DNA of 64,000 nt from an uncultured Candidatus Binatia bacterium (GTDB taxonomy: Bacteria; Desulfobacterota; Binatia; UBA9968; JAJDTQ01). The notes under the pieces were generated by a model. It did no database searches, had not been told where the DNA came from, and worked only from the letters and a program-made list of their open reading frames with translations. The translations under genes were made by a program, and so were the position numbers. Location of the stretch: positions 3,008,001-3,072,000 of the forward strand of contig OZ244070.1 of assembly GCA_965215605.1 (NCBI GenBank), in the 5' to 3' direction. This document shows positions 25,477 through 41,889 of the stretch, one piece after another (the first letter of the stretch is position 1; every line of letters begins with the position of its first letter).

Positions 25477-25562
25477 GTTCGGCCGTCCAGCAGTCAGGCG
25501 CGGCCAAGGCCGCGCTTGCACTCCCTCGTGGTAAGCTCCACATACACGCCAGTTGTGCGACG
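25468..25562 (-). ncRNA. ZMP/ZTP (pfl) riboswitch aptamer
   Basis: Minus strand GCAC-AACUGGCGU...GUGG agcuua CCAC-GAGGGA-GUGC, then a linker hairpin, then GCCGAACGCCUGGGU. Pseudoknot GGCGU/ACGCC. Upstream of serine/purine genes. Confidence 0.88.
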
Positions 25563-25565
25563 TTC

Positions 25566-25594
25566 TTCGTAGCCCGGCAGGGCGGCTTTGTCAA
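25566..25594 (-). promoter_or_regulatory. Sigma70-like promoter for the riboswitch leader
   Basis: TTGACA-17 nt-TACGAA, ending just before the aptamer 5' end. Confidence 0.6.
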
Positions 25595-25670
25595 TCAGAC
25601 GGTGGCCATCGGGCGCCGCGCGACGGTCTCTTTCCATGTCCGCCGCGAGCGTATAAGTTTCCAATCCGTC

Positions 25671-26381: not shown

Positions 26382-26410
26382 GGGAGGGGAGGAATTGCAG
26401 CGAGCTTAGG

Positions 26411-26462
26411 AAGTTTAGTAAGTTTATCGATTCTTTATAAACTAGGCTAAACTTGCTATAAG
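26411..26462 (+). promoter_or_regulatory. AT-rich imperfect inverted repeat abutting an extended -10 promoter
   Basis: AAGTTTAGTAAGTTTAT (26411-26427) and ATAAACTAGGCTAAACTT (26437-26454). TGcTATAAG lies just upstream of the GTG start. Confidence 0.6.
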
Positions 26463-26471
26463 TCTTCTTCA

Positions 26472-27659
26472 GTGGACCCGATACGTAACCCTTATGCCCC
26501 AGGGGCAGGCACGCAACCGCCTGAGTTGGCCGGTCGCGACGAAGTTCGGGAGTCGGCAAGAATCGCGCTGCAGCGCACCCGAAGGGGACGCCCGACCAAG
26601 AGCATCATCATGGTGGGCCTCCGTGGTGTCGGCAAGACCGTGCTGCTGGATGTTATACGGGAGCAGGCCGAGTCCAGCGGAATCTGCGCGCTTCGAATGG
26701 AAGCGCCTGAAAATCGGTCTCTTCCCTCGATTCTTGCCCCTCAACTGCGTGTGGCACTGCTACGGCTCTCGAACAAGGAGACAGCGAAGCACCTTGCGCA
26801 AAGGGCTCTGCGAGGGCTTGCGGGATTCGTGCGAGCATTGAAAGTGAAGTATCAGGACATTGAGGTCGGACTGGACGTCGACCCCGAGCCCGGGCTGGCG
26901 GACAACGGAGACCTGGAAAGCGATCTGCAGGACTTGTTCGAGGTTGTCGGCTCCGTGGCCAAGGCGGACGGGAACTGTTTGGCTCTTTTTGTCGACGAGC
27001 TTCAATACGTGAAAGAGGACCAGTTGGCGGCATTGATCACCGCATTGCACCGCACATCTCAGCGACGGCTCCCCGTTGTGATGCTTGGCGCTGGACTCCC
27101 GCAGGTGCGGGGGCACATGGGAAAGGCGAAGTCATACGCCGAACGGCTCTTCGAGTTTCCCGAAATCGGACCGCTGTCACGTGAAGATGCCAAGGTCGCC
27201 ATCGCCAAGCCGGCGAAGGACGAAGGGGTTGAAATAGAACCGGCCGCTCTCGACGCGGTCGTTGATCGAACGGAATGCTACCCGTATTTCTTGCAGGAGT
27301 GGGGAAAACACCTGTGGAATGTGGCGGAGCAGTCCCCTGTCACGTTTTCCAGTGTCGAGATCGCCTCCCGGCAAGCCATTGCCGCCCTCGACGAGAGCTT
27401 CTTTCTGGTGAGGTTTGAAAGGTTGACGCCGACGGAGAAGGAATATCTGCGCGCCATGGCACAACTTGGTCCCGGATCGCATCGCTCCGGCGACATCGCC
27501 AACACATTGGGCCGGCCGGTTACTTCCTTGGCGCCCATCCGGAGCCAACTGATCAACAAGGGCGTGATCTGGAGTCCAAGCTACGGAGACACGGCCTTCA
27601 CGGTGCCCATGCTTGACGAATTCATGCGGCGCATCATGCCTGGCGAACCGTGGCGTTAG
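26472..27659 (+). CDS. AAA_16-like P-loop ATPase with probable C-terminal winged helix
   Basis: NPYAPG, LAGRD, GLRGVGKT (Walker A), FVDELQ (Walker B), YPYFLQ, and C-terminal LINKG.IW...YG...FTVP. Confidence 0.85.
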   Translation: MDPIRNPYAPGAGTQPPELAGRDEVRESARIALQRTRRGRPTKSIIMVGLRGVGKTVLLDVIREQAESSGICALRMEAPENRSLPSILAPQLRVALLRLSNKETAKHLAQRALRGLAGFVRALKVKYQDIEVGLDVDPEPGLADNGDLESDLQDLFEVVGSVAKADGNCLALFVDELQYVKEDQLAALITALHRTSQRRLPVVMLGAGLPQVRGHMGKAKSYAERLFEFPEIGPLSREDAKVAIAKPAKDEGVEIEPAALDAVVDRTECYPYFLQEWGKHLWNVAEQSPVTFSSVEIASRQAIAALDESFFLVRFERLTPTEKEYLRAMAQLGPGSHRSGDIANTLGRPVTSLAPIRSQLINKGVIWSPSYGDTAFTVPMLDEFMRRIMPGEPWR

Positions 27660-27794
27660 TCCCGAAATCACTTGCGGCCATTCAAGGACGTGCGCAAGGG
27701 GAGAATACGTGCGAGAAAGGGAAGCCCCATGGCAAAAAAAGAGAGTCCGGATTCCAAAAAGGGTAAGTGACGTACGACGCAAGGGTGAAGTGTC

Positions 27795-30700
27795 ATGTCC
27801 AATCCATTCTTCGAGCAGCCCGTCCTGAACTCGCCGTACGAGTACCCGAATCGCCATTGGGAACTGGACGACACCGGGCAACCGACCCAGAAGATCATCG
27901 ACCGCCGGAGGCCGGCGCAGTTCATCACGCCCATCCCGACGCCGAAGAAACGCCGCGGCTCTTCCGCCGATCAGGGCGCGATGCGTTTCGGCGACGGCAA
28001 CGACATTTCCACGGAGAACCAGCAGTACGAGCTCACCGCCATCATCAACAGCGTGCGCCAGCAGGTCGAGCGTTGGCGCAGCATACCGAACCCGCATCAG
28101 TGGCAGGTAACCCCTGAAACGGCCCGGCTACTTCAACACTGGCGCCATCACCGCTTCAGCGGCATTCGTCCCTTTTTCTGCCAGGTCGAGGCGGCGGAGA
28201 CGGTCATCTGGCTGACCGAGGTCGCTCCTCGGGCCGGTCGTACGGGCAGGCGGTTTCTCGACCACTTGGCAGACGCCAATCAAGAGGCCAATCCCGAGTT
28301 GCAGCGGTTGGCGCTCAAGCTGGCCACCGGCGCGGGCAAGACCACGGTGATGGCGATGCTTATCGCTTGGCAGACCGTCAACGCGGTGCGACACCCGCAG
28401 AGCCGCCGGTTCACGCGCGGTTTTCTGGTCGTGACGCCCGGCATCACCATCAAGGACCGCTTGAGGGTGCTCCAGCCCAACGATCCCGACAGCTACTATC
28501 AGAGCCGCGAACTGGTCCCGAACGACATGCTGCCGGACCTCCAGAAGGCGCGGATCGTCATCACCAACTACCACGCCTTCAAGCTGCGCGACCGCATGGC
28601 TCTTTCTAAAGGCGGCCGCTTGCTGCTCCAGGGCCGTGGTGAGGCGCTCGCCACCCTGGAGACCGATGGGCAGATGCTTCAGCGGGTCATGCCCGAGCTC
28701 ATGGGCATCAAGAACGTACTGGTGCTGAACGACGAGGCGCACCACTGCTACCGCGAGAAGCCGGAAAAGGACGAAGAAGGCGCGCTCAAGGGGGACGACA
28801 AGAAGGAGGCGGACAAGAACACCGAGGCCGCCCGGTTGTGGATATCGGGGCTCGAAGCGGTGGTGCGAAAGCTTGGCGTCAACCGGGTGTTGGATCTCTC
28901 GGCCACGCCGTTCTTTCTTCGAGGTTCAGGGTACGCCGAGGGGACGTTGTTTCCTTGGACCATGAACGACTTCTCCCTCATGGACGCCATCGAATGCGGC
29001 ATCGTCAAGCTTCCACGGGTGCCGGTGGCTGACAACCTCCCCGGCGATGAAATGCCCAAGTTCCGCAACCTTTGGGAGAACATCCGTAGCGAAATGCCGA
29101 AGAAGGGGAGGGGCAAAGGCGACACCCTCGACCCGCTGAATCTGCCGATCCTCCTCATGACCGCGTTGGAGGCACTGTACGGACACTACAAGAAGACCTA
29201 CGAAGCCATGGCAAGCGCGGGTATCGAAGTGCCGCCATGCTTCATCGTGGTGTGCAATAACACCTCCACCTCCAAGCTCGTCTACGACTACATCTCGGGG
29301 TTTCACCGTGAGAACCCCGATGGTTCAACCACGCTACAGAACGGGTGCCTGGAGTTGTTCCGCAACTTTGACGAGCACGGCAACCGTTACCCGCGACCCC
29401 GTACTCTGTTGATCGACAGTGAGCAACTGGAGTCGGGCGACACCCTGGACAAGGACTTCCGCAAGATGGCCGCCGAAGAGATCGAGCGTTTCCGGCGGGA
29501 GATCACGGAGCGCACCGGAGATCGCCAGAAGGCAGAGAACATCAGTGATCAGGACCTTCTTCGGGAGGTGATGAACACCGTCGGCAAGCCGGGACGCTTG
29601 GGGGATTCGATTCGCTGCGTGGTGTCCGTGTCCATGCTGACCGAGGGCTGGGACGCGAACACGGTGAGCCACGTGCTTGGCGTGCGGGCATTCGGGACCC
29701 AGTTGCTGTGCGAACAGGTCGTTGGGCGGGCGTTGCGCCGCCAGTCGTACGATCTCAATGACGACGATCTGTTCGACGTTGAATACGCCGATGTGCTGGG
29801 CATACCTTTCGACTTTACCGCAAGGCCCGTGGTGGTCCCGACCAAGCCACCGCGAGAGACGGTTCAGGTCAACGCCGTGCGGCCCGAACGCGATGCGCTC
29901 GAAATCCGCTTTCCCCGCGTCGCCGGGTACCGCGTGGAGTTGCCCGAGGAGAGGCTGACCGCCGACTTCAACGAAGACTCCGTGCTGGATCTGACGCCGG
30001 CCCTCGTGGGACCTTCCATCACGCGGAACCAAGGCATTATCGGCGAGGCCGTCGACCTCAATCTGGTTCATACGGGAGATATGCGGCCGTCGACACTGCT
30101 TTTTCACCTGACACAACGGCTTCTCTACACCAAGTGGCGTGATCCGGGTGAAGAGCCCAAGCTCCATCTCTTCGGACAACTCAAACGTCTGACCAAGCAG
30201 TGGCTTGACCGCTGTCTTGTCTGCAATGGCAACACCTACCCCGCCCAGCTCATGTACCAGGAGCTGGCCGATATGGCGTGCGAACGCATCACCGCCGCCA
30301 TCACCCGCGCCGAGATGGACAGTAGCCGACCCGTAAAGGCGGTGCTGGACCCCTACAACCCCGTGGGTTCCACAGCCCACGTGAACTTCACCACCACCAA
30401 GACAAGCCGTTGGAACACGGACGCCAATCGCTGCCACATCAACTGGGTGGTCCTGGACAGCGACTGGGAGGCCGAATTTTGCCGTGTGGCTGAATCCCAC
30501 CCGCGGGTAAGGGCATACGTCAAGAACCATAGTCTCGGTTTCGAGGTTCCTTACCGCTACGCGTCCGAAGCGCGGACCTACATCCCGGATTTCATTGTTC
30601 TCGTAGACGACGGTCACGGGGACGACGATCTCCTGCGCCTCGTCGTCGAGATCAAGGGCTATCGCGGGGAGGATGCCAAGGAGAAGAAGGCCACCATGGA

Positions 30701-30872
30701 TACCTACTGGGTGCCGGGAGTCAACCGTCACGGCTCCTTTGGCCGCTGGGCGTTCGCCGAGTTTACCGAGGTGTACGAAATTCAGGGAGACTTCGAGGCG
30801 AGAGTAGAGGAAGCGTTCAACGACGTGATCAAACAATGTCTTCCGGAGGCGGCAGTCGAAGTTGCGCAGTGA
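27795..30872 (+). CDS. res: Type III-like restriction enzyme Res subunit (SF2 ATPase + PD-(D/E)xK)
   Basis: KLATGAGKT, DEAHH, SATP, MLTEGWD, QVVGRALR and C-terminal YIPDF...VEIKG. Confidence 0.9.
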   Translation: MSNPFFEQPVLNSPYEYPNRHWELDDTGQPTQKIIDRRRPAQFITPIPTPKKRRGSSADQGAMRFGDGNDISTENQQYELTAIINSVRQQVERWRSIPNPHQWQVTPETARLLQHWRHHRFSGIRPFFCQVEAAETVIWLTEVAPRAGRTGRRFLDHLADANQEANPELQRLALKLATGAGKTTVMAMLIAWQTVNAVRHPQSRRFTRGFLVVTPGITIKDRLRVLQPNDPDSYYQSRELVPNDMLPDLQKARIVITNYHAFKLRDRMALSKGGRLLLQGRGEALATLETDGQMLQRVMPELMGIKNVLVLNDEAHHCYREKPEKDEEGALKGDDKKEADKNTEAARLWISGLEAVVRKLGVNRVLDLSATPFFLRGSGYAEGTLFPWTMNDFSLMDAIECGIVKLPRVPVADNLPGDEMPKFRNLWENIRSEMPKKGRGKGDTLDPLNLPILLMTALEALYGHYKKTYEAMASAGIEVPPCFIVVCNNTSTSKLVYDYISGFHRENPDGSTTLQNGCLELFRNFDEHGNRYPRPRTLLIDSEQLESGDTLDKDFRKMAAEEIERFRREITERTGDRQKAENISDQDLLREVMNTVGKPGRLGDSIRCVVSVSMLTEGWDANTVSHVLGVRAFGTQLLCEQVVGRALRRQSYDLNDDDLFDVEYADVLGIPFDFTARPVVVPTKPPRETVQVNAVRPERDALEIRFPRVAGYRVELPEERLTADFNEDSVLDLTPALVGPSITRNQGIIGEAVDLNLVHTGDMRPSTLLFHLTQRLLYTKWRDPGEEPKLHLFGQLKRLTKQWLDRCLVCNGNTYPAQLMYQELADMACERITAAITRAEMDSSRPVKAVLDPYNPVGSTAHVNFTTTKTSRWNTDANRCHINWVVLDSDWEAEFCRVAESHPRVRAYVKNHSLGFEVPYRYASEARTYIPDFIVLVDDGHGDDDLLRLVVEIKGYRGEDAKEKKATMDTYWVPGVNRHGSFGRWAFAEFTEVYEIQGDFEARVEEAFNDVIKQCLPEAAVEVAQ

Positions 30873-31066
30873 CTCGCCGCGACGGTTGACCGTGACACAA
30901 CCGTGGCGTCGATGGCGCACAGGAATCCTTTGGGCAATTGGCCGAGGCGCTGGCCGAGATAATCGAGTATAATCCACGGGATGCATCGGAACCCGAGGGC
31001 GACAACAGACGCAACGAGAAGATCGTCTTGCAGTGACGGACGAGAACATCGACCAACGAGGACGCC

Positions 31067-31270
31067 ATGAAGCTGAAAGTCGTGATCCATCAAGCTGACG
31101 AAGGCGGTTATTGGGCGGAAGTGCCTTCCATCCCCGGCTGTGCGACGCAGGGGGATTCATTCGAAGAGTTGTTGACGAATCTCTACGAAGCCGTCGAAGG
31201 TTGTCTGTCCGTCGACGTTCGTGATCTGCCCGTCTCGGGGAAGGCAAGGGTGATCGAGATTGCGATATGA
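31067..31270 (+). CDS. hicB: HicB-family antitoxin (short form)
   Basis: [26 protein letters not shown]. Upstream TATAAT at 30968. Confidence 0.9.
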
Positions 31271-31473
31271 GGGCGGTCAGCGGCAGGCAGTTCTCCAGGC
31301 TTCTTGAATCCAAGGGATGGCGGTTGAAGCGCATAAACGGGAGCCATTTCATCTATGTGAAGTCAGGATCTGCCGTTCGCCTCTCAGTACCGGTCCACGG
31401 AGACACATCGCTGAAAGCCGGGCTCCAGAGACACCTGATGAAGTTGGCAGGCATCCACGAGTCGGATCTGTAA
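31267..31473 (+). CDS. hicA: HicA-family mRNA interferase toxin
   Basis: LESKGW...RINGSH, SVPVHG and LKAGL. ATGA overlap with hicB. Confidence 0.9.
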
Positions 31474-31513
31474 CCAGACAACCCCGACGTTACAGGCGAG
31501 CAAGGTCGCAAAT

Positions 31514-34336
31514 ATGGCGAAGCGAAAATCGAGCAAGACGGTCGAGATCCTTCAGCACTCGAAGGCTTCACGAAAGAACATCCCCACCGCCGAATATCAA
31601 CCGCTCATGACCGACAAGGATCAGAGTTCGGTTCAGGTGGCCTACGAGCGCCGAAACCGTGATCTTGACCCACAACTCGTCTGGCGGGGCAAGGATGTGC
31701 AGGACTGGTCCGACCTCGTCGTCCAGGCGCCGCCGCTCTTCATTCAGGAAAAGGTCCACCCGAAGGCTCTGATCGAGGATATGCTGCGCAGGAGTAAGCA
31801 GGGGGAGGAGGCCAGCGACGAGCCCGGCTTCCAGGCCGACCTTTTCGCCGATTTCAACGGCCTTCCTTCCGAGGATGCCAGGACCGAGTTCTACCAGCAC
31901 GATGCCAACTGGTCGAACCGGATGATCCTGGGCGACAGCTTGCAGGTGATGGCGTCGCTGGCGGAGCGGGAGGGACTGCGCGGCAAGGTGCAGTGCATCT
32001 ACATCGACCCGCCCTACGGCATCAAGTTCAACTCCAACTTCCAGTGGTCAACGACCAGCCGTGACGTCAAGGACGGCAATGCGGCGCACATCACGCGCGA
32101 GCCGGAGCAGGTGAAGGCGTTTCGGGATACGTGGCGCGATGGGATTCATTCGTATTTGACATATTTGCGGGATCGGCTGACGGTGGCACGGGATTTGTTG
32201 GCTGAGAGCGGGTCGATCTTTGTGCAGATCGGGGACGAGAATGTGCATCGGGTACGGGTGGTGATGGACGAGGTGTTTGGGGAAGAGAACGTAGTATCTC
32301 AAATTGGATTTGCGAAGACATCTGGTTCTACAGACGATTTCCTCGGCCAAACAACGGACTGCCTTTTGTGGTACGCAAAAGACAAGACGCAGATCAAATT
32401 TCGTCGTGCGCTGAAAGACAAAAGAGCGGGTGAGCCTGGAGGAACGAACTACAACCGATTACGTGACAGTTTCGGCCGGAGTCGGTCAATTAAAGCAGAT
32501 GAAGATCTGAGCCGGGAAATCGAATCCGGGGAGTTGCGGATCTACTCTTTGGATAATTTGACGTCTCAAAGTGCAGGACGGGACAAAGGCGAAGGCGCAG
32601 CTTCCTGGTTTGGGGTGGAGTTTGCGGGAAGGACGTATAAGCCTTCGCTCGCGGTCCGCTGGAAGACGAATGAAACGGGAATGTCTAGGTTAAAATGCGC
32701 TGGCCGTCTCGAAGGGACTTATGCGCGGCTCGGATACGTGCGTTATCTGGAAGACTTTCCTGTAGTTCAAATCAACAACCGCTGGTACGATGTAGCGGCG
32801 AGCTTCATGGCCAATAAGGTTTATGTAGTACAGACATCTCCAACCGTCATTCAACGCTGCATCCTGATGACCACAGACCCCGGCGATTTGGTCCTGGACC
32901 CCACCTGCGGCTCCGGCACCGCCGCGTATGTTGCCGAGCAATGGGGTCGCCGTTGGATTACCGTTGACACCTCTCGCGTTGCCCTCGCGTTGGCCCGGGC
33001 TCGTATCATGGGTGCTCGTTATCCCTACTACTTGCTCACCGACAGCCGCGATGGCCAAATCAAAGAAGCTGCGCTTGCCCGCAGGGTTCCCTCAGCAGCG
33101 CCCACCTACAACGATATCCGCCTAGGCTTCGTGTACGAGCGTGTTCCCCACATCACGCTCAGGTCCATCGTCAACAACGCCGAGATAGACGTCATCTGGG
33201 AGAAGTTTCACGAAACGCTAGAACGGCTGCGTAAGGAGTTGAACCACGCCCTCAGCGCATCCTACGAGGAATGGGAGATCCCACGAGACGCCGATGAGGC
33301 TTGGTCCGTGGAAGTCAGGAAGATTCACGCGGAATGGTGGGAACAGCGAATCGCCCGGCAAAACGAAATCGACGCTTCCATCGCCGCCAAGGCCGACTAC
33401 GAGTACCTCTACGACAAGCCCTACGAAGACAACCGGAAAGCCCGCGTTGCCGGTCCCTTTACGGTGGAGAGTCTATCACCGCACCGTCTGCTGGGCGTCG
33501 ACGAACACGATGAACTCATCGACAAGGTCGCCGAAAGCACGTTCGGGTATGGCGACCAGCAGGATTTCGCCGCGATGATTCTTGACAATCTCAAGACCTC
33601 CGGTGTCCAACAGGCGCACAAAGAGAACCGCATCGCCTTCTCCAGTGTCCGTCCCTGGCCCGGAAGTTTCGTTTGTGCCGAGGGAGCTTACGTCGAAGGC
33701 AACGCCGACTCGGGTCCAAGAAAGCGCGCCGGCATCTTCATCGGCCCGGAATTCGGCACCGTCTCCCGCCCCGATCTCGTATCAGCGGTGCGCGAGGCCG
33801 CCGACGCCGACTTCGACGTGTTGATCGCCTGCGCTTTCAACTACGACGCCCACGCTTCGGAGTTCAACAAGCTCGGCCGCGTCCCGGTCCTCAAGGCCCG
33901 CATGAACGCCGACCTCCACATGGCCGGCGACCTCAAGAACACCGGCAAGGGCAACCTCTTCGTCATTTTCGGAGAGCCGGACATCGACATCCTCGAAGCG
34001 GAGGACGATCAGATCCAGGTCAAGGTCAACGGCGTCGACGTGTTCCACCCCAACACCGGCGAGATCCGCAGCGACGGCGCCGACGGCATCGCCTGCTGGT
34101 TCATCGATACCGATTACAACGAGGAAAGCTTCTTTGTCCGCCACGCCTACTTCCTTGGCGCCAGCGACCCATACAAGGCGCTCCAGACCACCCTCAAGGC
34201 CGAGATCAACGAGGAGGCTTGGGAAACGCTACACAGCGACACCTCCCGGCCTTTTGACAAACCCGCCTCCGGCCGCATCGCCGTAAAGGTAATCAATCAC
34301 CTCGGGGACGAGGTGATGAAGGTGTTTCGGGTGTGA
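31514..34336 (+). CDS. mod: Type III-like Mod DNA methyltransferase (N6-adenine, beta class)
   Basis: GDSLQVM, YIDPPYG (motif IV), a central TRD and VLDPTCGSGT (motif I). Confidence 0.92.
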   Translation: MAKRKSSKTVEILQHSKASRKNIPTAEYQPLMTDKDQSSVQVAYERRNRDLDPQLVWRGKDVQDWSDLVVQAPPLFIQEKVHPKALIEDMLRRSKQGEEASDEPGFQADLFADFNGLPSEDARTEFYQHDANWSNRMILGDSLQVMASLAEREGLRGKVQCIYIDPPYGIKFNSNFQWSTTSRDVKDGNAAHITREPEQVKAFRDTWRDGIHSYLTYLRDRLTVARDLLAESGSIFVQIGDENVHRVRVVMDEVFGEENVVSQIGFAKTSGSTDDFLGQTTDCLLWYAKDKTQIKFRRALKDKRAGEPGGTNYNRLRDSFGRSRSIKADEDLSREIESGELRIYSLDNLTSQSAGRDKGEGAASWFGVEFAGRTYKPSLAVRWKTNETGMSRLKCAGRLEGTYARLGYVRYLEDFPVVQINNRWYDVAASFMANKVYVVQTSPTVIQRCILMTTDPGDLVLDPTCGSGTAAYVAEQWGRRWITVDTSRVALALARARIMGARYPYYLLTDSRDGQIKEAALARRVPSAAPTYNDIRLGFVYERVPHITLRSIVNNAEIDVIWEKFHETLERLRKELNHALSASYEEWEIPRDADEAWSVEVRKIHAEWWEQRIARQNEIDASIAAKADYEYLYDKPYEDNRKARVAGPFTVESLSPHRLLGVDEHDELIDKVAESTFGYGDQQDFAAMILDNLKTSGVQQAHKENRIAFSSVRPWPGSFVCAEGAYVEGNADSGPRKRAGIFIGPEFGTVSRPDLVSAVREAADADFDVLIACAFNYDAHASEFNKLGRVPVLKARMNADLHMAGDLKNTGKGNLFVIFGEPDIDILEAEDDQIQVKVNGVDVFHPNTGEIRSDGADGIACWFIDTDYNEESFFVRHAYFLGASDPYKALQTTLKAEINEEAWETLHSDTSRPFDKPASGRIAVKVINHLGDEVMKVFRV

Positions 34337-34366
34337 AGCCGTCGTTACGAGAGGGGAGGGTGCCTC

Positions 34367-35356
34367 ATGGCTAGCGGTGACCAAATCAAGGCATTACTGA
34401 AGTCGCACCTGGAGGGTGATGACGACCGCTTCTTTGCCGTCGCCATGCAGGTGGCGGCTCATGAGGCCAGGCTCGGCCATGGCAAACTTGCCGAACAGTT
34501 GCGCGCCATGGTTGACGAAGCCAAGGGCCAGGTTGGGACGGTTCGGCCCGTTCCCATCGGCCGCCCGCGAGGAGAACTCGCGAATCTCCTGGAAGCGTCA
34601 TACCCGAAGGCTCGTCTCAGTGAGATGATTCTCGGCGATGCTCTCGCTGAACAGATCAGCCGGGTCATCCGGGAGCAGCGCCAAGCCAGTCGCATCCTGG
34701 CATCTGGCCTTTCGCCCAGGCGAAAGTTGCTGCTGATAGGGCCTCCCGGCACAGGCAAGACGTTGACGGCTACGGTCTTGGCGGGGGAACTCCGCCTTCC
34801 TCTCTTCCAGGTCAGACTGGACGGGCTCATCACCAAGTTCATGGGAGAGACCGCGGCCAAACTAAGGCAGATATTCGATGCCACAAGTCGGAACCGGGGC
34901 ATCTACTTTTTCGATGAGTTCGACGCCATCGGTTCACAGCGGGGTCTTGCCAATGACGTGGGTGAGATCCGTCGCGTTTTGAACAGTTTCTTGCAGATGA
35001 TTGAGCAAGATGGTTCTCACAGTTTGGTCGTTGCGGCGACAAACCATCCCGGAATACTCGATCACGCCCTGTTCCGCCGTTTCGACGACGTCTTGCACTA
35101 TGAGTTGCCGGACATGTCACACATTGCAGACCTCCTGAAGAGACGGCTTGTCGGATCGGTTGCCAAGGGGTTCCGATGGGAGGCCTTGGCGGGACTGGCT
35201 CAGGGGCTGAGTTATGCCGAGGTAACGCGCGCGGCCAACGAGGCTCTCAAGGACGCGCTGATCCATGATCGTGACAGAATCCTTCCGGAAGAACTTCGGA
35301 CTGTGCTCGCCGAGCGCAAGCGCCTTGCCGAGAGGTTGACCACGCAAGTGGAATAG
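34367..35356 (+). CDS. AAA+ ATPase, IetA-like
   Basis: GPPGTGKT, FFDEFD and LDHALFRRFD. Directly upstream of an S8 peptidase. Confidence 0.88.
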   Translation: MASGDQIKALLKSHLEGDDDRFFAVAMQVAAHEARLGHGKLAEQLRAMVDEAKGQVGTVRPVPIGRPRGELANLLEASYPKARLSEMILGDALAEQISRVIREQRQASRILASGLSPRRKLLLIGPPGTGKTLTATVLAGELRLPLFQVRLDGLITKFMGETAAKLRQIFDATSRNRGIYFFDEFDAIGSQRGLANDVGEIRRVLNSFLQMIEQDGSHSLVVAATNHPGILDHALFRRFDDVLHYELPDMSHIADLLKRRLVGSVAKGFRWEALAGLAQGLSYAEVTRAANEALKDALIHDRDRILPEELRTVLAERKRLAERLTTQVE

Positions 35357-35376
35357 GGGGAGGGGCGGGGAACCAA

Positions 35377-37908
35377 ATGGCGGAGGCAACCGCGGGTCGA
35401 CATCGGCACTTCATTCTCGAGGGTATCACCGAGACAGAGGAGTACCGCCGCCCGGGAAGTGGAGGGCAGCGCACTTCGATCCCGGAGCAGGAACGGACAC
35501 AGCATGGCGGAGCCCTGCTGGGCCAGCTTGCGGAGTGTCGAAGTGCCGCCGACGCCGCCCGAGAGATCCAGCAGACCGCAGGGTCCGAAGGAGGTCTGGG
35601 CCTCCAGGTCGAATTCGAGAGTTTCCCTGATGTCGAGTTGGCGTTCGAGAGCTTGGCGAGAGAACGCCAGGGCATCGAATTGCTGAACGTTCGCCATGAC
35701 GGGAGTCGGACCCTCGCCACTGTCTTCGTCCCCGACGGCAAGCTGGACCATTTCGAAGGGCTCATCCACGACTATCTGGATGGAAAGAGAGACCGCGCAG
35801 ACCGTCCTCGTGACAACAGGCGTCTCATCGACGCCATCCAGCAGATCCGAGCGGCAAGCATTCGGGCGCTTTGGACCGACGATGACGAGGCGTTTCCGAC
35901 ATCAGAAGAGGGTCCGTTGTGGTGGGAAGTATGGTTGCCGCGGAAAGGCTCTCCATCCGATCCCACGGCTGCGGATCAATTACTTGCCCCGGATGGTTTC
36001 CGACAGAGAGCCGAAGCCCAGGGAATTCAGGTGGCGCAAGGAGAAGCTCGATTTCCGGAGCGTACTGCCTTGCTGGTCCGGGCATCTCTCGAAGAGATGC
36101 AGCGTTCCATGGTTACGCTGAACAGCATCGCCGAGTTGCGGCGGGCGAAGGAGACGGCGGAGTTCTTTGATTCTCTGGAACAAGATGAGCAACGCGCATG
36201 GCTTGACGATCTCCTTGCACGAACACGATTCGCTCAAGATACCGAGGAGACACCTTACGTGTGTCTGCTCGATACGGGTGTCAATCGCGGGCATCGATTG
36301 CTTGCGCCAGCCCTTGACGCCCGTGACCTCCATACCGTCGAGCCTGGGTGGGGGACCAATGATGCCGAGGGGCATGGAACGGAGATGGCGGGTGTAGCTC
36401 TGGCCGGCAACTTGGCCGAGATCCTCGAAAGTAGCGACCCTGTAGAAATCGATCATCGACTCGAATCCGTCAAGCTACTGCCAAAGGGTGGAGCAACCGG
36501 AACGGCTCCCCGTCACCATGCGTACTTGACGCTCGAAGCGGTGGCGCGTCCCGAAGTTACGGCTCCGTCGCGGGTTCGAGTCTTTGGCATGGCCGTCACG
36601 GCGCGTGACAATCGGGACCGCGGGCGCCCGTCCTCTTGGTCCGGGGCGGTGGATTCGTTGGCGGCGGATATTGACGGACGCGGAGCCAATCCGCGGCTGC
36701 TAGTGGTGTCCGCGGGGAATGTCAGCGATCCCAGCGCGTGGTGGCATTATCCAAACAGTAACGAGACGGACGGAGTTCACGATCCTGCTCAAGCGTGGAA
36801 CGCCGTCACCGTAGGCGCCTATACCGACTTCGTCCAGATTGCTGAACCGGACGCTGCTGGCTATGTGCCGATCGCCCAGGCGGGCGAACTGAGTCCTTTC
36901 AGTACGCCCTCTCTGACATGGGAGCGCTTCTTGCCAAACAAGCCGGACATCGTTCTCGAAGGCGGCAACGCGGCCAAGGACTCACTGAGCGCGGTACCTC
37001 TGCCCAGCCTCAGCCTCTTGACGACGCACTATCGTCCCGCGGATCGACTCTTTACGACGACAAACGCGACCAGTGCCGCGATGGCGCTTGCATCCAGACT
37101 GGCGGCACAAATCAGAGGCGCTTACCCCGAGCTATGGCCGGAAACAGTGCGTGCGTTGATGGTCCACTCAGCCGAGTGGACGCCGGCCATGAAGCGTATG
37201 TTTCTGCAAGGTAGAAGACGCCCATCAAAGCTGGACTACGGGAATCTGGTACGGCGGTGTGGATTCGGCGTCCCGGACATCAATCGCGCAATTTGGAGTG
37301 TCGAGAACTCCCTGACGATGGTTGTTCAGGAAACGTTGCAGCCATTCAAACGTGTGCCGGGCAAGCAGGTCACTCTGCGCGATATGCATCTCCACAATCT
37401 GCCTTGGCCGCGCGATGTCCTTGAGGACTTGGGCGGCACGCAAGTCGAGATGCGGGTCACACTGTCGTACTTCATCGAGCCTAATCCCTCGCAACGGGGC
37501 GCCCGCTCCCGCTACCGGTATGAATCTCACGGCCTCCGCTTCGACGTAAAGCGCCCGCTGGAATCCACGGATGACTTTCGCCGTCGCATCAACTTGTTGG
37601 CAAGAGATGAAGAAACGGGAGGCAATCGCGGGGGTGGCGATCCGTCATGGCTAATCGGAGGCCAAGGACGCCATCGAGGTTCGTTGCACGGAGACATCTG
37701 GAGAGGCACGGCTGCGGACCTCGCGAATCGCGGTTCCATCGCTGTCTATCCCACTGCCGGCTGGTGGAAGACTCGACCTGCGCTGGAGCGTTACGACAAA
37801 ATAGCCCGGTATGCCTTGGTCGTCAGCATCAAGGCGCCGGAGGTGGACGTTGATCTCTACAGCGAGGTCGCTAATCTGATTGCGCCGAAGGTCGAAGTCG
37901 AGACCTGA
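35377..37908 (+). CDS. Subtilisin-like S8 peptidase, IetS-like
   Basis: LLDTG (Asp), HGTEMAG (His), SAGN, KPDIV and ATSAA (Ser). No signal peptide. Confidence 0.88.
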   Translation: MAEATAGRHRHFILEGITETEEYRRPGSGGQRTSIPEQERTQHGGALLGQLAECRSAADAAREIQQTAGSEGGLGLQVEFESFPDVELAFESLARERQGIELLNVRHDGSRTLATVFVPDGKLDHFEGLIHDYLDGKRDRADRPRDNRRLIDAIQQIRAASIRALWTDDDEAFPTSEEGPLWWEVWLPRKGSPSDPTAADQLLAPDGFRQRAEAQGIQVAQGEARFPERTALLVRASLEEMQRSMVTLNSIAELRRAKETAEFFDSLEQDEQRAWLDDLLARTRFAQDTEETPYVCLLDTGVNRGHRLLAPALDARDLHTVEPGWGTNDAEGHGTEMAGVALAGNLAEILESSDPVEIDHRLESVKLLPKGGATGTAPRHHAYLTLEAVARPEVTAPSRVRVFGMAVTARDNRDRGRPSSWSGAVDSLAADIDGRGANPRLLVVSAGNVSDPSAWWHYPNSNETDGVHDPAQAWNAVTVGAYTDFVQIAEPDAAGYVPIAQAGELSPFSTPSLTWERFLPNKPDIVLEGGNAAKDSLSAVPLPSLSLLTTHYRPADRLFTTTNATSAAMALASRLAAQIRGAYPELWPETVRALMVHSAEWTPAMKRMFLQGRRRPSKLDYGNLVRRCGFGVPDINRAIWSVENSLTMVVQETLQPFKRVPGKQVTLRDMHLHNLPWPRDVLEDLGGTQVEMRVTLSYFIEPNPSQRGARSRYRYESHGLRFDVKRPLESTDDFRRRINLLARDEETGGNRGGGDPSWLIGGQGRHRGSLHGDIWRGTAADLANRGSIAVYPTAGWWKTRPALERYDKIARYALVVSIKAPEVDVDLYSEVANLIAPKVEVET

Positions 37909-37909
37909 G

Positions 37910-40054
37910 ATGCAATTTATCATCGCAAATACCTTCACCGAGAGCCTCGCCAGGCTGACCGGCGACGAACAGAAGGCCGCTAAGACGACGGTCTTCGACC
38001 TTCAGACCGACCCTTCGCAGCCGGGACTCAGTTTCCACCGGGTCAGGAACCCAAAGGACCGGAACTTCTGGTCCGTTCGCGTGAGTAGTGATGTTAGGAT
38101 CATTGTGCACAAGAGCGCCGACAGCACGGTCTTGTGCTACGTGGACCATCACGAAGACGCCTACAAATGGGCCGAACGCCGCAAGCTGGAGACCCATCCG
38201 AAGACCGGTGCAGCGCAACTGGTCGAACTCCGAGAGACGGTCAGGGAAATCATCGTGCCAAGGGCCGTCGAACCAGTGCCGGAGGTTCAGCCGAAACCGC
38301 TGCTGTTCGCGGGCATCAGCGATGACGCTCTCCTGGGGTATGGGGTTCCGGGTGAATGGTTGAATGATGTACGGGCCGCTGACGAGGACAGTGTCCTGGA
38401 TTTGGCCGCGCACCTGCCGGCGGAAGCGGCGGAGGCGCTACTGGTTCTGGCGGTGGGCGGGACGCCTCAGATGGCGCTGGCTTCGTCCGGTCCGCGTTCG
38501 TTCGAAGACTCCGACCTTCCGATGATGGTAGCGGAGGCGGCGGTAGAGTATGGTGCCGCGCTACCTCCCGACCCCTTCGATCACCCTGACGCGCAGCGTC
38601 GTTTCCGCGTCATGCACGACATCGCGGAACTGGAACGCGCCCTGAGCTATCCGTGGGAAAAATGGGCCGTGTTCCTCCACCCGGTGCAGCAACAGATCGT
38701 CGAGAAATTCTACGGCGGCCCGGCCCGGGTGTTTGGCACCGCGGGCACCGGCAAGACGGTGGTGGCACTCCACCGGGCCGTGCACCTCGCCCGGAACAAT
38801 CCCGATGCCAGGGTCCTGTTGACCACCTTCTCCGACACCTTGGCGGATGCGCTCAGGACCAAGCTCGCACGATTGATCCACAACGAGCCGCGACTCGCGG
38901 AGCGGGTGGAAGTCGAGGCCATCGACGCAGTCGGCGAGCGCCTTTATCGTTCCCAGTTCGGTCCCCCGAGGATTGCCACACGCGCAGAGATCGAGGAACT
39001 GCTGGTCGACGCGGCGGGTGAAGCAGAAAAGGGTGACTTCAGCCTCCGGTTCCTGCTGGGCGAGTGGGAGAACGTGGTCGATGCGTGGCAGTTGGATACT
39101 TGGGAGGCGTACCGTGATGTGCGCCGGCTTGGTCGGAAGACACGGCTTCCTGTCGAACGCCGCGCGGTGCTTTGGGCGATTTTCGAGAGGGTCCGCATGG
39201 AGATCCAGAACCGAGGGTGGTTGACCAGGGCCGGCACGTTCGGCTTGCTGGCCGAGAATCTCAAGGATCGGCCACATCCGCCGTTTGAATTCGCGGTCGT
39301 GGATGAGGCGCAGGATATCAGTGTCGCGCGACTGCGTTTTCTGGCGGCGTTGGGAGGGGACCGACCGAACGGTCTCTTCTTTGCGGGGGATCTTGGTCAG
39401 CGCATCTTCCAAACGCCGTTTTCGTGGAAGGCCATGGGCGTCGAGGTTCGCGGGAGATCTCAGGTCCTGAAGCTCAACTACCGCACTTCCCATCAGATCA
39501 GGGTTAAGGCTGACCGTTTGCTCGGCCCGGAAGTTACCGATGTCGACGGTAATGTGGATGACCGGCGAGGAACGGTTTCGGCATTCAATGGCCCCGATCC
39601 CATCATGCGCGTATTCGAAACACAGCAGGAAGAGGCAGATGCCGTCGCGCAATGGTTGCAGCAATGTGCCAGCGAAGGCGTGAGCCCCGGTGAGATGGGA
39701 GTATTCGTGCGGTCTGCGGCGCAATTGGACCGGGCTCGTAAGGCAGTGACCCACGCCGGACTCTTTGTTCAGGTCTTGGATGAACAGGATAGCAATAGTG
39801 GCGACCGTGTCTCGATAAGCACCATGCATCTGGCAAAGGGTCTTGAGTTCCGTGCCGTCGCAGTCATGGCATGTGACGATGAAGTCCTTCCCTTACAGGA
39901 ACGGATCGAGAACGTGGCCGACGAAGCCGACCTTGAGGAGGTCTACGACACGGAAAGGCACCTGCTCTACGTGGCCTGTACGCGCGCCCGCGACCACTTG
40001 ATAGTCACGGCGGTCGAGCCAGCGTCCGAGTTCCTGGATGACCTCCAGACATGA
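37910..40054 (+). CDS. SF1 (UvrD-like) helicase with N-terminal RelE/ParE-like domain
   Basis: N-terminal PGLSFHRV...FWSVRVSSDVRIIV...YVDHH. GTAGTGKT, VDEAQD, NYRT, TMHLAKGLEF and LYVACTRAR. Confidence 0.85.
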   Translation: MQFIIANTFTESLARLTGDEQKAAKTTVFDLQTDPSQPGLSFHRVRNPKDRNFWSVRVSSDVRIIVHKSADSTVLCYVDHHEDAYKWAERRKLETHPKTGAAQLVELRETVREIIVPRAVEPVPEVQPKPLLFAGISDDALLGYGVPGEWLNDVRAADEDSVLDLAAHLPAEAAEALLVLAVGGTPQMALASSGPRSFEDSDLPMMVAEAAVEYGAALPPDPFDHPDAQRRFRVMHDIAELERALSYPWEKWAVFLHPVQQQIVEKFYGGPARVFGTAGTGKTVVALHRAVHLARNNPDARVLLTTFSDTLADALRTKLARLIHNEPRLAERVEVEAIDAVGERLYRSQFGPPRIATRAEIEELLVDAAGEAEKGDFSLRFLLGEWENVVDAWQLDTWEAYRDVRRLGRKTRLPVERRAVLWAIFERVRMEIQNRGWLTRAGTFGLLAENLKDRPHPPFEFAVVDEAQDISVARLRFLAALGGDRPNGLFFAGDLGQRIFQTPFSWKAMGVEVRGRSQVLKLNYRTSHQIRVKADRLLGPEVTDVDGNVDDRRGTVSAFNGPDPIMRVFETQQEEADAVAQWLQQCASEGVSPGEMGVFVRSAAQLDRARKAVTHAGLFVQVLDEQDSNSGDRVSISTMHLAKGLEFRAVAVMACDDEVLPLQERIENVADEADLEEVYDTERHLLYVACTRARDHLIVTAVEPASEFLDDLQT

Positions 40055-40093
40055 CTGTCCGTGTCCATTCACTCCATGACTCGTTGCCGATGA

Positions 40094-40225
40094 CTACGGT
40101 CTTAACGCTTCGGTCGCGGAATATCCCCGCAAGCGACGATGCTTGGCGATCAGACGTGTATCGACGCTACCCACGATGAGCAGTACCAACAGGTTCGCGT
40201 CGATGAAATATCCCGCGGGCGGCAT
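40094..40225 (-). pseudogene. Truncated PIN-domain protein (43 aa)
   Basis: My translation MPPAGYFIDANLLVLLIVGSVDTRLIAKHRRLRGYSATEALRP* has the PIN N-terminal 'IDANLL' motif and ends abruptly. Confidence 0.6.
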
Positions 40226-40229
40226 CGGT

Positions 40230-40526
40230 CTAAGCGGAGGCGGTCGGGAGGCGTTCGGGCGGGGGGAAACGGTCTGTCAGGGATTCGACCTCTCCACTGC
40301 GGTCGTTGATGCGGATGACCTTGTAGGAACGCGACACGACTGCCCCGAGCGCGGCGGTCAGGGGGTTCTTGTGGTCCCACGGTCGAGAGAAACCGATGGT
40401 GATTCTCCAGCTATTTGACGTGGATTCGAACTCGACCTCTTCCAGACCGATGTTTGTGACTCCTTCGTCCGCAAAAAGGTCGGCAATGTAGTCTTTTGCC
40501 TTGTGGCAGGCTACCTTCGCGTCCAT
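40230..40526 (-). CDS. Small hypothetical protein, probable partner of the PIN protein
   Basis: RBS GGAGG, IGLEEVEF, WRITIGFSRP and YKVIRI. Ends 4 nt before the PIN remnant. Confidence 0.65.
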   Translation of the reverse strand: MDAKVACHKAKDYIADLFADEGVTNIGLEEVEFESTSNSWRITIGFSRPWDHKNPLTAALGAVVSRSYKVIRINDRSGEVESLTDRFPPPERLPTASA

Positions 40527-40650
40527 GTCAGCCTCCGCTGCATCCCTGTCAACTATCGTCGACGCGTGCCGTACACTCCCCACAACACAACTCTGTCGTG
40601 ACCTGCCTGCATCTTGTGTTCATGGAGGGTTTTTTGAGAACGCCATGCCA

Positions 40651-41286
40651 TTATAGGCTGTCATCCCGCGGAGGTATCTGCAATCCACGCTTCACCGCCG
40701 GCCGGGAGCCGACCCGGGCCAGCCATTCCCGCACATTCGGGTAGCGGTCGAGGTCGACCTCCTGCATCTGCCAGCGGTAGATCCATGGGTAGGCGGCCAC
40801 GTCGGCGATGGAATAGTCGCCGGCCAGATAGTCTCGTCCTTCCAGCCCGCGGTTCAGCACGCCGTAGACGCGGTTGTTCTCCGCCTGCCAGACGCCCAGA
40901 TGGGCGTGCTCTTCGCCGGCGTCGCGGCGGCGTATCTGCCAGTGCACGCCCAGGCCCGTGTGGGTGATGTGGCCAGAGGCGAAGAAGAGCCAGTTCAGTA
41001 CTTCCATGCGGGCAGACGGCTCTTGCGGCAGGAGCCGTCCCGACTTCTCCGCCAGGTAGATGAGGATGGCGCCCGACTCGAACACGGTGACGGACACGCC
41101 GCCGGGGCCGTCGTCATCGACGATGCAGGGGATCCGGCCGTTGGGATTGATGGCCAGATACCAGTCTTCCTTCTGCTCCATGTTCTCCAGGGCCATGGGC
41201 CTGACCGTGTAGTCCAGCCCCGATTCCTCCAGCATGATGGATGCCTTGCGGCCGTTGGAGGTTGCCTTGCTGTAGAGGGTGATCAT
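40651..41286 (-). CDS. Glutathione S-transferase (YfcG/Nu-like)
   Basis: TSNGRK, INPNGRIP, FESGAIL.YLAEK and YSIAD. Confidence 0.92.
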   Translation of the reverse strand: MITLYSKATSNGRKASIMLEESGLDYTVRPMALENMEQKEDWYLAINPNGRIPCIVDDDGPGGVSVTVFESGAILIYLAEKSGRLLPQEPSARMEVLNWLFFASGHITHTGLGVHWQIRRRDAGEEHAHLGVWQAENNRVYGVLNRGLEGRDYLAGDYSIADVAAYPWIYRWQMQEVDLDRYPNVREWLARVGSRPAVKRGLQIPPRDDSL

Positions 41287-41347
41287 CTCGGTCGTCTCCT
41301 TTTGGCTGCCCGGTTTATAGCGACTTCATCGATTTGCTGTAAACTGA

Positions 41348-41857
41348 ATGGAGGGGCACACCTTCATCTCCGAAAACCCTGCCCGACAGGCCCTGACGGA
41401 GGGCAGGAAGATCGCCGCCATCATCGCCACCATGGGCACCACCGATTCCTTTGGCCTCGACGACCTCCAGGCCATCCCCGCGCTGCGGGACGCGCTGGCG
41501 GATTCCGTGGACGTGGACTTCCACAAGACCGGCTTTGCGCCGTACATCTCCAGCCTGGTGCTGGTGAAGGACCGGGCGGACCTGCAGCGGGTCGCGCGGG
41601 ACCCGGAACAGATGCCGTACCTCTACCAATCCGGGGAATAACCGCCCCGGCATGTACACGCTGGAAACGTCCCGGGCGGGCACCGGCCCCCTCGCCGCCA
41701 TGGCCAACTATCGCCTGTTACCGACTGCTACCGCCGCACCCGCTACGGCGAGCCCATCTACGCCCTCAAGTCCTACATCCTGTCGCCGTTCGTGGACGAA
41801 GCGTACGTCGAGGCCGTCGTCCACAAGATCATGGAAGCGCGGGAGAAGGTGGGGTAG
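41348..41857 (+). pseudogene. Decayed group II PLP-dependent decarboxylase
   Basis: IATMGTTD.FG.D and ADS...DFHKTG (PLP Lys). A +1 insertion at about 41640 creates TAA, and removing it gives EYRPGMYTLETSR. A further frameshift, internal deletions and no N-terminus. Confidence 0.7.
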
Positions 41858-41889
41858 GGGGTGCCGTCCAGCTCGTGCCCGATCCAGGC

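Follow-up and report, generated by a model that had tools for sequence, protein, structure and literature searches.

A stretch of 64,000 nucleotides (nt) from the genome of an uncultured Candidatus Binatia bacterium (contig OZ244070.1, positions 3,008,001 to 3,072,000; called the window here) carries seven co-oriented genes in which a restriction enzyme (Res), a DNA methyltransferase (Mod) and a RelE-UvrD helicase are interleaved with the hicBA toxin-antitoxin pair and with IetAS, a pair of an ATPase and a protease (Table 1). We consider it probable that this region is a horizontally mobile Res-Mod-helicase backbone whose two gene joints act as slots for cargo. The backbone is conserved and co-inherited, and the defence or toxin-antitoxin modules in its slots, most of them known, vary from genome to genome; here hicBA occupies slot 1 and IetAS slot 2. 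Cargo replacement in slot 2 is bounded by the stop codon of Mod and the start codon of the helicase. These results correct a first reading of the region as one machine of seven parts, and replace it with a backbone plus swappable modules.

Relatives of the region were collected by three protein-anchored searches, with Res, the helicase and IetS as anchors, over contigs of one genome per species, which gave about 200 loci overall, most of them metagenome-assembled. Res had at least 621 relatives in many phyla (73 loci kept), the helicase at least 549, also in many phyla (80 loci kept), and IetS 68 (65 loci). The proteins of the window were mapped onto every locus, and the flanks of the loci ended at 10 kb. 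Among the 73 Res-anchored loci, 59 had Mod after Res; in 13 of the remaining 14 no more than 1218 bp followed Res, and the last had a truncated Res. In 47 loci Mod was complete and the sequence continued for 2.5 kb or more past it, and 30 of these had a helicase homologue with 57–69% identity; where the sequence continued for 6 kb or more past Mod, 16 of 23 had one. Seen from the other end, 58 helicase-anchored loci had 3 kb or more of upstream sequence, and in 54 of them Mod lay upstream; for 9.9 kb or more the count was 42 of 44. In 13 distinct loci that have complete copies of all five genes, which are few and not independent of one another, pairwise identities were closely correlated between Res and the helicase (r = 0.93) and between IetA and IetS (0.97), and only at 0.61–0.68 between the two pairs. 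The helicase also occurred with Res and Mod where IetAS was absent, as was the case for 63 of the 90 labelled rows in a tree of 101 distinct helicases. A minimal operon is found on a mobilizable Pseudomonas amygdali plasmid, where the annotations are a BPTD_3080 Res, a 68-amino acid (aa) hypothetical protein, a site-specific DNA-methyltransferase and a UvrD-helicase protein. In two other loci (L100:1402-12061 and L082:7449-12067) the helicase had 10 kb of upstream sequence with no Res or Mod of the window's families; it followed a type I restriction-modification (RM) system (hsdM, SLFN/HATPase_c_4, hsdS) and a transposase in L100, and an OLD-TOPRIM and UvrD pair, which is Gabija-like, in L082. 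These two may be rearranged or decayed backbones.

Comparison of loci with closely related backbones located the slots. L103, which carries IetAS, and L102, which carries a PD-T4-4-like ATPase and other genes, were 96% identical in Res and 87–91% identical in Mod, had no DNA in common from the Mod stop to the helicase start, and, beginning with the helicase's first base, were 94% identical over 4 kb; in L176 and L094, homology broke at the same points. Between the window and L074, a locus with the same backbone and other cargo, homology stopped with the Mod stop codon, whose last base is 34336, and returned at 37898, 12 nt before the helicase ATG. At slot 1, L154, a locus without hicBA, was homologous to the window up to 30799 and again from 31534. 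The GST gene downstream of the helicase was 90–94% identical in L154, L155/L075, L166 and L074, and this synteny indicates that the contents of the slots differ at one and the same chromosomal site.

Across the relatives, the shortest Res-Mod gap was 11 nt and the longest 4647 nt (at most 100 nt in 15 and more than 250 nt in 35 of 51 loci), and the Mod-helicase gap varied between 6 and 5838 nt. Slot 1 contained mainly toxin-antitoxin and small nuclease genes, belonging to the families PIN with or without FitA, HicA, BrnT, MNT/HepT, Gp49/HigB-like, Fic, Bro-N, YhcG, 23S_rRNA_IVP, ORF6N and NYN, and to SLFN-AlbA_2 or DUF4062 with HATPase_c_4. Whole defence systems made up the contents of slot 2: IetAS; Hachiman (L014, L042, L145); SIR2-HerA (L015, L030); HEC-01 (L031, L080, L104, L105, L133, L143); HEC-06 (L080); Gabija (L113); Dsr1 (L112); DRT UG5-nitrilase (L098); AbiP2 (L139); PDC-S05, PDC-S06, PDC-S27, PDC-S46 and PDC-S68; and a DrmD-like SNF2 protein (L061). 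In three loci whose sequence did not extend to a helicase, HEC-06 (L005), Ppl (L010) and Lamassu (L028) were found downstream of Mod. Among 55 helicase-anchored loci with a full Mod, a count that omits six loci duplicating contigs of the Res set, 13 had no cargo, 6 had IetAS and 36 had other cargo. Open reading frames (ORFs) in the gaps, of which 140 were searched with Pfam and sets of 134 and 78 with PADLOC, mostly shared the orientation of the backbone. Counting ORFs of 90 aa or more, the helicase-anchored set had 66 of 72 on the + strand; the Res-anchored set had 119 of 140, including all with a Pfam match (0 of the 21 minus-strand ORFs matched Pfam). The cargo is nested, co-oriented, variable and also found outside such hosts, as is characteristic of embedded defence systems.

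Table 1. Genes of the cassette and extent of its two joints, in positions of the window.
Feature	Position	Strand	Assignment
AAA_16 / STAND-like ATPase, 395 aa	26472..27659	+	probably accessory or cargo upstream of Res
Res	27795..30872	+	backbone gene 1
Slot 1 = Res-Mod joint	30800..31533	+	hicBA plus variable last ~24 Res codons
HicB-like antitoxin, 67 aa	31067..31270	+	slot 1 cargo
HicA toxin, predicted mRNA interferase, 68 aa	31267..31473	+	slot 1 cargo
Mod, type III-like DNA methyltransferase, 940 aa	31514..34336	+	backbone gene 2
Slot 2 = Mod-helicase joint	34337..37897	+	IetAS cassette
IetA, AAA+ ATPase, 329 aa	34367..35356	+	slot 2 cargo
IetS, S8 subtilisin-like serine protease, 843 aa	35377..37908	+	slot 2 cargo
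ArmD-like helicase, 714 aa	37910..40054	+	backbone gene 3

The original prediction had described seven co-oriented + strand genes at 27795–40054 with small gaps and intact catalytic motifs, and our coordinates agree with it: the gaps are 30 nt between Mod and IetA, 20 nt between IetA and IetS and 1 nt between IetS and the helicase. The remaining gaps are 194 nt (Res-HicB) and 40 nt (HicA-Mod), and the HicB and HicA genes overlap by 4 nt. The helicase ATG at 37910 lies one base past the IetS stop; an alternative TTG at 37880 is unnecessary. The catalytic residues of Res, Mod, IetA and IetS are all present and, with the single exception of P167 in Mod, invariant in relatives. Terminator-like sites on the + strand occurred only at 26965 and 32524, both within genes, and a crude, organism-blind scan found none between the genes of the cassette; a promoter scan gave one promoter-like site, inside ietS, and shuffled sequences gave more. 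These scans weakly suggest a single transcript.

Res belongs to the BPTD_3080 family of restriction endonucleases (NCBIfam NF046055, 1372 bits against a cut-off of 800). It matched Pfam ResIII (3.5e-9), and its score for RE_endonuc (21.9 bits) was just below the cut-off of 23.4. The protein consists of a superfamily 2 (SF2) DEAH motor and a C-terminal PD-(D/E)xK nuclease, and residues D313, E314 and H316 of the DEAH motif (313–316) and D932, E952 and K954 were invariant in 87 of 87 relatives. Mod matched the PADLOC MTase_III model PDLC03632 over its whole length (1486 bits), Pfam N6_N4_Mtase (2.9e-32) and, in phmmer searches, the solved type III Mod proteins 6k0w (2.8e-18) and EcoP15I Mod 4zcf (3e-14). 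It has the beta-class order, with DPPY at 165, a variable region and DPTCGSGT near 462; D165, P166 and Y168 were found in 96 of 96 relatives, and P167 in 95 of 96.

The classical EcoP1I and EcoP15I systems are two-gene operons in the order mod then res; type III systems cleave unmethylated sites at the expense of ATP, and their Res relies on Mod to recognise DNA. Like them, the window encodes a beta-class Mod related to type III Mod and a Res that joins a DEAH motor (an SF2 ATPase) to a C-terminal PD-ExK nuclease. Unlike them, res precedes mod, both in the window and in 59 of 59 Mod-bearing Res-anchored loci, Mod is extended at its C-terminus by ~450 aa, a helicase gene is linked to the pair, and the joints hold cargo. 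The extension (residues ~500–940, window 33000–34336) is conserved and has no Pfam match, and the last 200 aa of Mod are 83–86% identical across phyla, with dozens of invariant residues. An AlphaFold model of the C-terminal 460 aa had a mean predicted local distance difference test (pLDDT) score of 58, too poor for a fold search, and prediction of a complex between these 460 aa and the N-terminal 270 aa of the helicase gave no answer (score 0.00).

The central part of Mod is far more variable than the rest, with 19–45% identity to relatives at residues ~250–450, compared to 83–92% on either side. At the DNA level, ~520 nt of Mod (window ~32291–32812) had no homology to L074 or L154, with a similar gap to L166, while the Mod DNA on either side was 80–90% identical to that of close relatives. 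This looks like the pattern expected of a swapped target-recognition region, in which case close relatives probably methylate different sites. The cassette is accessory: among 24 genomes of the same genus, a close full-length Res was found in nine and broken pieces in four. The partial Res pieces (G002, G003, G006 and G010) had 69–86% identity, and some of these genomes also hold full copies elsewhere; the broken pieces are best understood as decayed cassettes.

The third backbone gene encodes a RelE/YoeB-fold N-terminal domain (~aa 1–100), a conserved linker and a UvrD/GajB-like superfamily 1 (SF1) core. The core matched the Pfam UvrD-helicase (N) and UvrD_C domains and PADLOC GajB (7.7e-26), and contains a Walker A motif (GTAGTGKT) and a DEAQ motif. 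The first ~100 residues had no Pfam match. In an AlphaFold model built on an alignment of 37 homologues, means of pLDDT over 10-residue blocks were at least 89 for residues 1–110, and the top PDB matches found by Foldseek were YoeB, RelE, YafQ and HigB, with a best E-value of 2.9e-5 (YoeB 2a6r_C) and template modelling (TM) scores on the target of 0.72–0.77 (0.77 for RelE 3bpq_B). The RelE/UvrD label given to the gene in the original prediction is thus supported at the level of the predicted fold. Residues R57, R63, H81, Y85 and W87 of the RelE-like domain were invariant in the 37 homologues and are kept in an E. coli plasmid protein. The window's own genome contains one close copy of the helicase; three other matches were weak, partial and confined to the P-loop.

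That E. coli protein occupies the ArmD position of a plasmid ARMADA type II-like locus, and the helicase of the window is 33% identical to it (residues 5–701, E 3e-94); the comparison was made with this plasmid protein, the tested ArmD being that of NCTC 12900. ARMADA type II is described as having the gene order SNF2-MTase-YprA-helicase (PMC12458937, bioRxiv 10.1101/2025.09.15.676423). According to the same report, removal of any one gene of the four, ArmD included, abolished defence, as did the ArmD Walker A mutation K266A, and ARMADA is stated to protect without growth arrest (PMC12458937). Distant relatives of our helicase, with 33–36% identity, were found in L223/L225 (E. coli plasmid NZ_CP026578.2, 24384-40607) and L224 (Thermus plasmid). 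There the order is an SNF2-related protein, a large S-adenosylmethionine methyltransferase, a DruE/YprA-like DEAD/DEAH helicase and, last, the helicase relative; the E. coli locus directly follows another DEAD/DEAH helicase gene. The window's helicase is like ArmD of ARMADA type II, as described, in its RelE-UvrD architecture and in being the last gene of a methyltransferase-based defence operon. It is instead partnered by a type III-like Res and a Mod of the beta class, and the cassette contains none of ArmA (BrxHII-like), ArmB (PglX-like) and ArmC (YprA-like), so that the system is not ARMADA despite its ArmD-like helicase. Membership in Hma was also considered and rejected, since HmaA, HmaB and HmaC were absent among the PADLOC matches listed for Res, Mod and the helicase (for the helicase, the best 25 of its 42 matching families). 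The likeness to ArmD speaks for a helicase that works within the methylation-based backbone, and against an independent abortive back-up. The suggestion in the original prediction that it is such a back-up was not borne out: the helicase is the most faithful partner of Res-Mod, co-diverges with Res and aligns along its whole length with the protein at the ArmD position of the ARMADA type II-like locus.

The cargo of slot 2 is an adjacent AAA+ ATPase and S8 protease with intact active sites, the arrangement known as IetAS, of which the original description is reportedly that of Gao in 2020. IetA matched PADLOC IetA (3.3e-72) and Pfam AAA (3.5e-29), and IetS matched Pfam Peptidase_S8 (1.6e-55) and PADLOC IetS (3.3e-27). 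The Walker A lysine of IetA (K131) was invariant in 62 of 62 sequences, and the Asp/His/Ser triad of IetS (D299/H333/S566) in 57 of 57. Both proteins scored far under the NCBIfam equivalog cut-offs (199.8 bits against 510 for IteA, and 72.6 against 900 for IteS), and the IetAS of the window is most reasonably regarded as a distant subfamily. Gene adjacency, the Walker A lysine and the triad are features in common with IetAS and with ietHAS, a variant that adds an SNF2 helicase to the pair (Liu et al., NAR 2026, PMC13069673); the low equivalog scores and the embedding in an RM operon set the window's pair apart from both. In contrast to the SNF2 protein ietH, the helicase next to the pair in the window is SF1 and ArmD-like, and tied to Res-Mod. 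The PADLOC check advised with the original prediction gave matches for Mod (MTase_III), IetA, IetS and the helicase (GajB).

The order Res-Mod-IetA-IetS-helicase recurred in 22 of the 65 IetS-anchored loci, and the loci with embedded IetAS carried nine phylum labels; recurrence of a five-gene order under so many labels indicates that the arrangement is not due to chance. Of the 65 loci, 29 were embedded, 17 were stand-alone (6 of them at 66–72% identity) and 19 were uninformative. Stand-alone copies matched the query over nearly its whole length, agreed with it in size and domains, and were located in ordinary islands or in the leading regions of plasmids; relatives of IetS occurred in 424 plasmid records, for example in the leading region of Klebsiella IncF without RM nearby. 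In the IetS tree (57 rows), a well-supported clade of 37 contained 30 embedded, 5 stand-alone and 2 unlabelled rows, and a second clade of 18 was stand-alone (Pseudomonadota), with one embedded row nested within it. This tree required 4 changes of state, compared to a mean of 11.5 for shuffled labels, and 0 of 500 shuffles were as low. On the helicase tree the IetAS label needed 12 changes, at least 10 of them forced by well-supported branches (shuffled mean 23.4), and close sister pairs of helicases carried different cargo. The gene neighbourhoods, proposed as a check on the original prediction, support a coupling that goes beyond that of defence-island neighbours: the genes move as one co-oriented unit, and the IetS clade has 30 embedded among its 35 labelled rows.

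The cargo of slot 1 is an overlapping pair of genes with HicA toxin and HicB-like antitoxin domains. HicA matched Pfam HicA_toxin (9.6e-14; 51.7 bits against a cut-off of 27), and HicB matched UPF0150 (5.6e-7) and HicB_lk_antitox (9.3e-7; 29.5 bits against 27). The hicB gene lies upstream of hicA, and the short HicB protein (67 aa) consists only of the UPF0150/HicB-like N-terminal domain, without a DNA-binding domain; autoregulation of hicBA, if there is any, must therefore work in another way. The hicBA DNA was common to slot 1 of the window, of L166 (Binatia) and of L175 (Latescibacterota), with unrelated flanks, and hicBA was found in merely a handful of loci. An eighth co-oriented gene, encoding the AAA_16 ATPase (Pfam AAA_16, 3.9e-17; no PADLOC match at 1e-10), begins the series 135 nt upstream of Res. 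It has relatives upstream of Res in L154 and L166 (83–87% identity), and others, with 52–66% identity, in the Mod-helicase slot (L054:16544-17728 and L110:8785-9969). By the logic of embedding, this ATPase is a candidate for an undescribed defence gene.

Defence systems embedded in other defence systems have been described in Hma, BREX, DISARM and type I RM by Payne, Hughes, Fineran and Jackson (bioRxiv 10.1101/2024.01.29.577857). As in those hosts, the cargo reported here is nested between host genes, varies between homologous hosts and occurs outside them too, and nearly all of it has the orientation of the host (96.7% in the report of Payne et al.). The families HEC-01, HEC-06, PDC-S05, PDC-S06, PDC-S27, PDC-S46, PDC-S68, Hachiman and Gabija are cargo in both. 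Unlike the four hosts that they name, the host here is a type III-like RM system with an ArmD-like helicase; the main text of that paper mentions neither 'ietas' nor 'uvrd', and its one instance of 'type iii' refers to DRT type III; its supplementary tables may include type III hosts or IetAS. Payne et al. also cite the PrrC anticodon nuclease inside the EcoprrI hsd locus (10.1101/2024.01.29.577857), which resembles the window in that an abortive or toxic module is nested in an RM operon. The likeness concerns the nesting of genes alone, and the cargo of the window, unlike PrrC, is interchangeable. In E. coli, RM III and ietAS are listed among the non-randomly co-localised pairs (Wu et al. 2023, bioRxiv 10.1101/2022.08.21.504612), consistent with our finding of type III RM and IetAS together beyond chance. 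Theirs is an E. coli statistic, however, and the passage that reports it names no nesting, helicase or slot. Our literature searches found no paper on 'BPTD_3080' by name, and none on the Res-Mod-ArmD-like backbone under the topics of type III restriction/UvrD/embedding, guilt-by-embedding and ARMADA RelE-like. The claim in the original prediction that no described system has this composition holds for the exact backbone, but embedding, the pairing of RM III with ietAS and a RelE-UvrD helicase with a methylase have all been published.

Although the activities of the proteins encoded in the region have to be deduced, we can postulate how a backbone with cargo slots would work. Mod would methylate host sites by means of its fast-changing target-recognition region, and Res would cleave unmethylated DNA with its DEAH motor and PD-ExK nuclease. 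By analogy with ArmD in ARMADA type II, the helicase would be a working part of the backbone, most likely loading on DNA ends or structures that arise in restriction, as GajB-like proteins do; once loaded, it could either aid the destruction of DNA or switch on its RelE-like domain. The hicBA and IetAS genes would be self-contained modules, and cargo inside the operon would gain co-transcription and co-transfer. Such cargo may add back-up or addiction functions, which the backbone would not need. Recombination in the conserved flanking genes probably carries cargo between backbones, thereby keeping its embedded position.

Several points weigh against a mobile backbone with interchangeable cargo. 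The helicase is not universal, as none was seen in 17 of 47 informative Res-Mod loci, and 7 of these 17 are among the 23 loci whose sequence extends 6 kb or more past Mod; some of the unseen helicases may lie beyond the 10 kb flank. The loci are the best-scoring relatives of the window's own proteins, and are mutually related and non-independent; their ORFs were called by a greedy longest-ORF rule, the PADLOC results are matches to single hidden Markov models and not whole-system calls, and IetAS is over-represented in the helicase tree owing to the IetS-anchored loci. All of the activities, and the single transcript, are things that we infer from sequence. Furthermore, the association of IetAS with the backbone appears stronger than simple hitch-hiking might predict, with 30 of 35 rows embedded at the same position and 4 changes on the tree. 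The embedded IetS clade and the co-localisation of RM III and ietAS in E. coli thus leave room for a functional tie. One form of such a tie, which we regard as doubtful, is that the slot-2 IetAS clade has been tied into the Res-Mod-ArmD-like backbone and guards it. IetA and IetS would then monitor the restriction complex or the helicase, and the protease would become active once restriction is disabled by a phage, in the manner of PrrC for EcoprrI; the helicase would be a sensor common to both layers. A guard would explain the 30 of 35 embedded rows under nine phylum labels, the IetS-helicase joint of a few nt where the helicase directly follows IetS in embedded loci, and the E. coli co-localisation.

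Closer to the original prediction is a single integrated and layered system, in which IetAS, the RelE-helicase and HicA are latent abortive effectors, kept in check by Res-Mod and triggered by its loss or inhibition. We judge this unlikely. The junctions are indeed tight, at 1–40 nt except for the 194 nt before hicB, the IetS-helicase joint measures a few nt in those embedded loci where the helicase directly follows IetS, and the well-supported IetS clade in which 30 of 35 labelled rows share one embedded position carries nine phylum labels. Published work offers support in the non-random co-localisation of RM III and ietAS reported for E. coli (Wu et al.), in the precedent of PrrC/EcoprrI cited by Payne et al., and in an IetAS variant that is described as requiring a helicase partner (Liu et al., PMC13069673). 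Nevertheless, the helicase stays with Res-Mod regardless of IetAS, which was missing from 63 of 90 labelled rows; unrelated systems replace IetAS in near-identical backbones; the IetAS label changes at least 10–12 times on the helicase tree; and the correlation of divergence between IetAS and the backbone is only 0.61–0.68. Embedded and stand-alone IetA and IetS align end to end, with no added domain, hicBA is limited to its handful of loci, and ARMADA, which uses the ArmD helicase, is reported to be protective without growth arrest. What survives of the proposal that tight coupling denotes one layered system is a co-oriented unit that travels together beyond island neighbourhood; the fixed seven-gene machine does not survive, as its cargo swaps.

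The same loci bear on two further explanations. If the seven genes were an ordinary defence island, with independent systems side by side by chance and no operon logic, the low guanine-cytosine (GC) content of the region, an Mrr type IV enzyme nearby on the opposite strand and the patchy distribution among relatives would all be expected. We find this very unlikely, because the cargo is enclosed by the genes of one RM system instead of lying beside them, in the same nested order under nine phylum labels, with boundaries that fall on a stop codon and on a start codon and with cargo that is co-oriented in 66 of 72 and 119 of 140 ORFs. It is hardly credible that IetA, IetS and the helicase form a three-part unit like ietHAS, the helicase serving IetAS as dedicated partner or antitoxin-like regulator and Res-Mod being a mere neighbour. 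A gap of 1 nt separates IetS from the helicase, and ietHAS is reported to need its helicase for defence, with helicase mutation being toxic (Liu et al., NAR 2026, PMC13069673). Yet the helicase lies 6–26 nt after Mod, with no IetAS, in L016, L020, L021, L043 and L057, and 13 of 55 helicase-anchored loci have a Mod-helicase gap of 250 nt or less (6–103 nt). Moreover, none of the 17 informative stand-alone IetAS loci had a helicase of the window's type within 10 kb downstream or 7–10 kb upstream, and ietH is an SNF2 protein encoded upstream, whereas the window's helicase is SF1 UvrD/ArmD-like and encoded downstream. A mobile Res-Mod-helicase backbone with two cargo slots is the explanation that we prefer.

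Examination of the surroundings of the cassette showed an island with a GC content of 0.55–0.63, compared to 0.64–0.70 in the flanks, bordered by serA/serC-like genes on one side and by the GST gene on the other. The tRNA scan found none, and thus no tRNA-linked integration site, and there was no direct repeat longer than 29 nt in the window from 27000 to 40700, nor were leftover ends of Mod or the helicase visible. A full-length Mrr-type type IV methyl-dependent restriction enzyme is encoded at 41890–42807 on the minus strand, 1.8 kb past the helicase (Pfam Mrr_N 1.3e-33 and Mrr_cat 1.3e-36; PADLOC mREase_IV 5.9e-87), in the stretch of the island with the lowest GC content (0.566). This placement means that a methyl-directed enzyme adjoins a methylating RM system. 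At the left edge of the island, a 295-aa ORF (25553–26440, + strand) had no Pfam or PADLOC match; relatives with 47–59% identity occupy the same place upstream of the cassette in L154, L155 and L166, and it is a real gene. A 453-aa ORF (40900–42261, + strand) was rejected as probably no gene, since it overlaps GST and Mrr on the opposite strand and has no family match.

If the backbone works as proposed, several consequences would follow for the annotation and the biology of these systems. There is a gap in current annotation: the PADLOC 2.0 REase_III models scarcely detect the Res of the window (best E 3.1e-4), and operons of this kind may appear as an orphan methylase plus IetAS. The sharply bounded slots could be mined for new defence genes; several conserved cargo ORFs, plus the AAA_16 gene (beyond its Pfam domain), have no family or PADLOC match. 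The nesting of IetAS would be a physical arrangement that could underlie the co-localisation of RM III and ietAS in E. coli. ARMADA type II is so far the only system for which RelE-UvrD (ArmD-like) helicases have been described; such helicases would be tied to type III-like restriction as well, which would point to a general accessory role of the ArmD-like helicase in methylation-based immunity. The Res-Mod-helicase backbone would then represent a fifth, widespread host type for embedded defence, present in many phyla.

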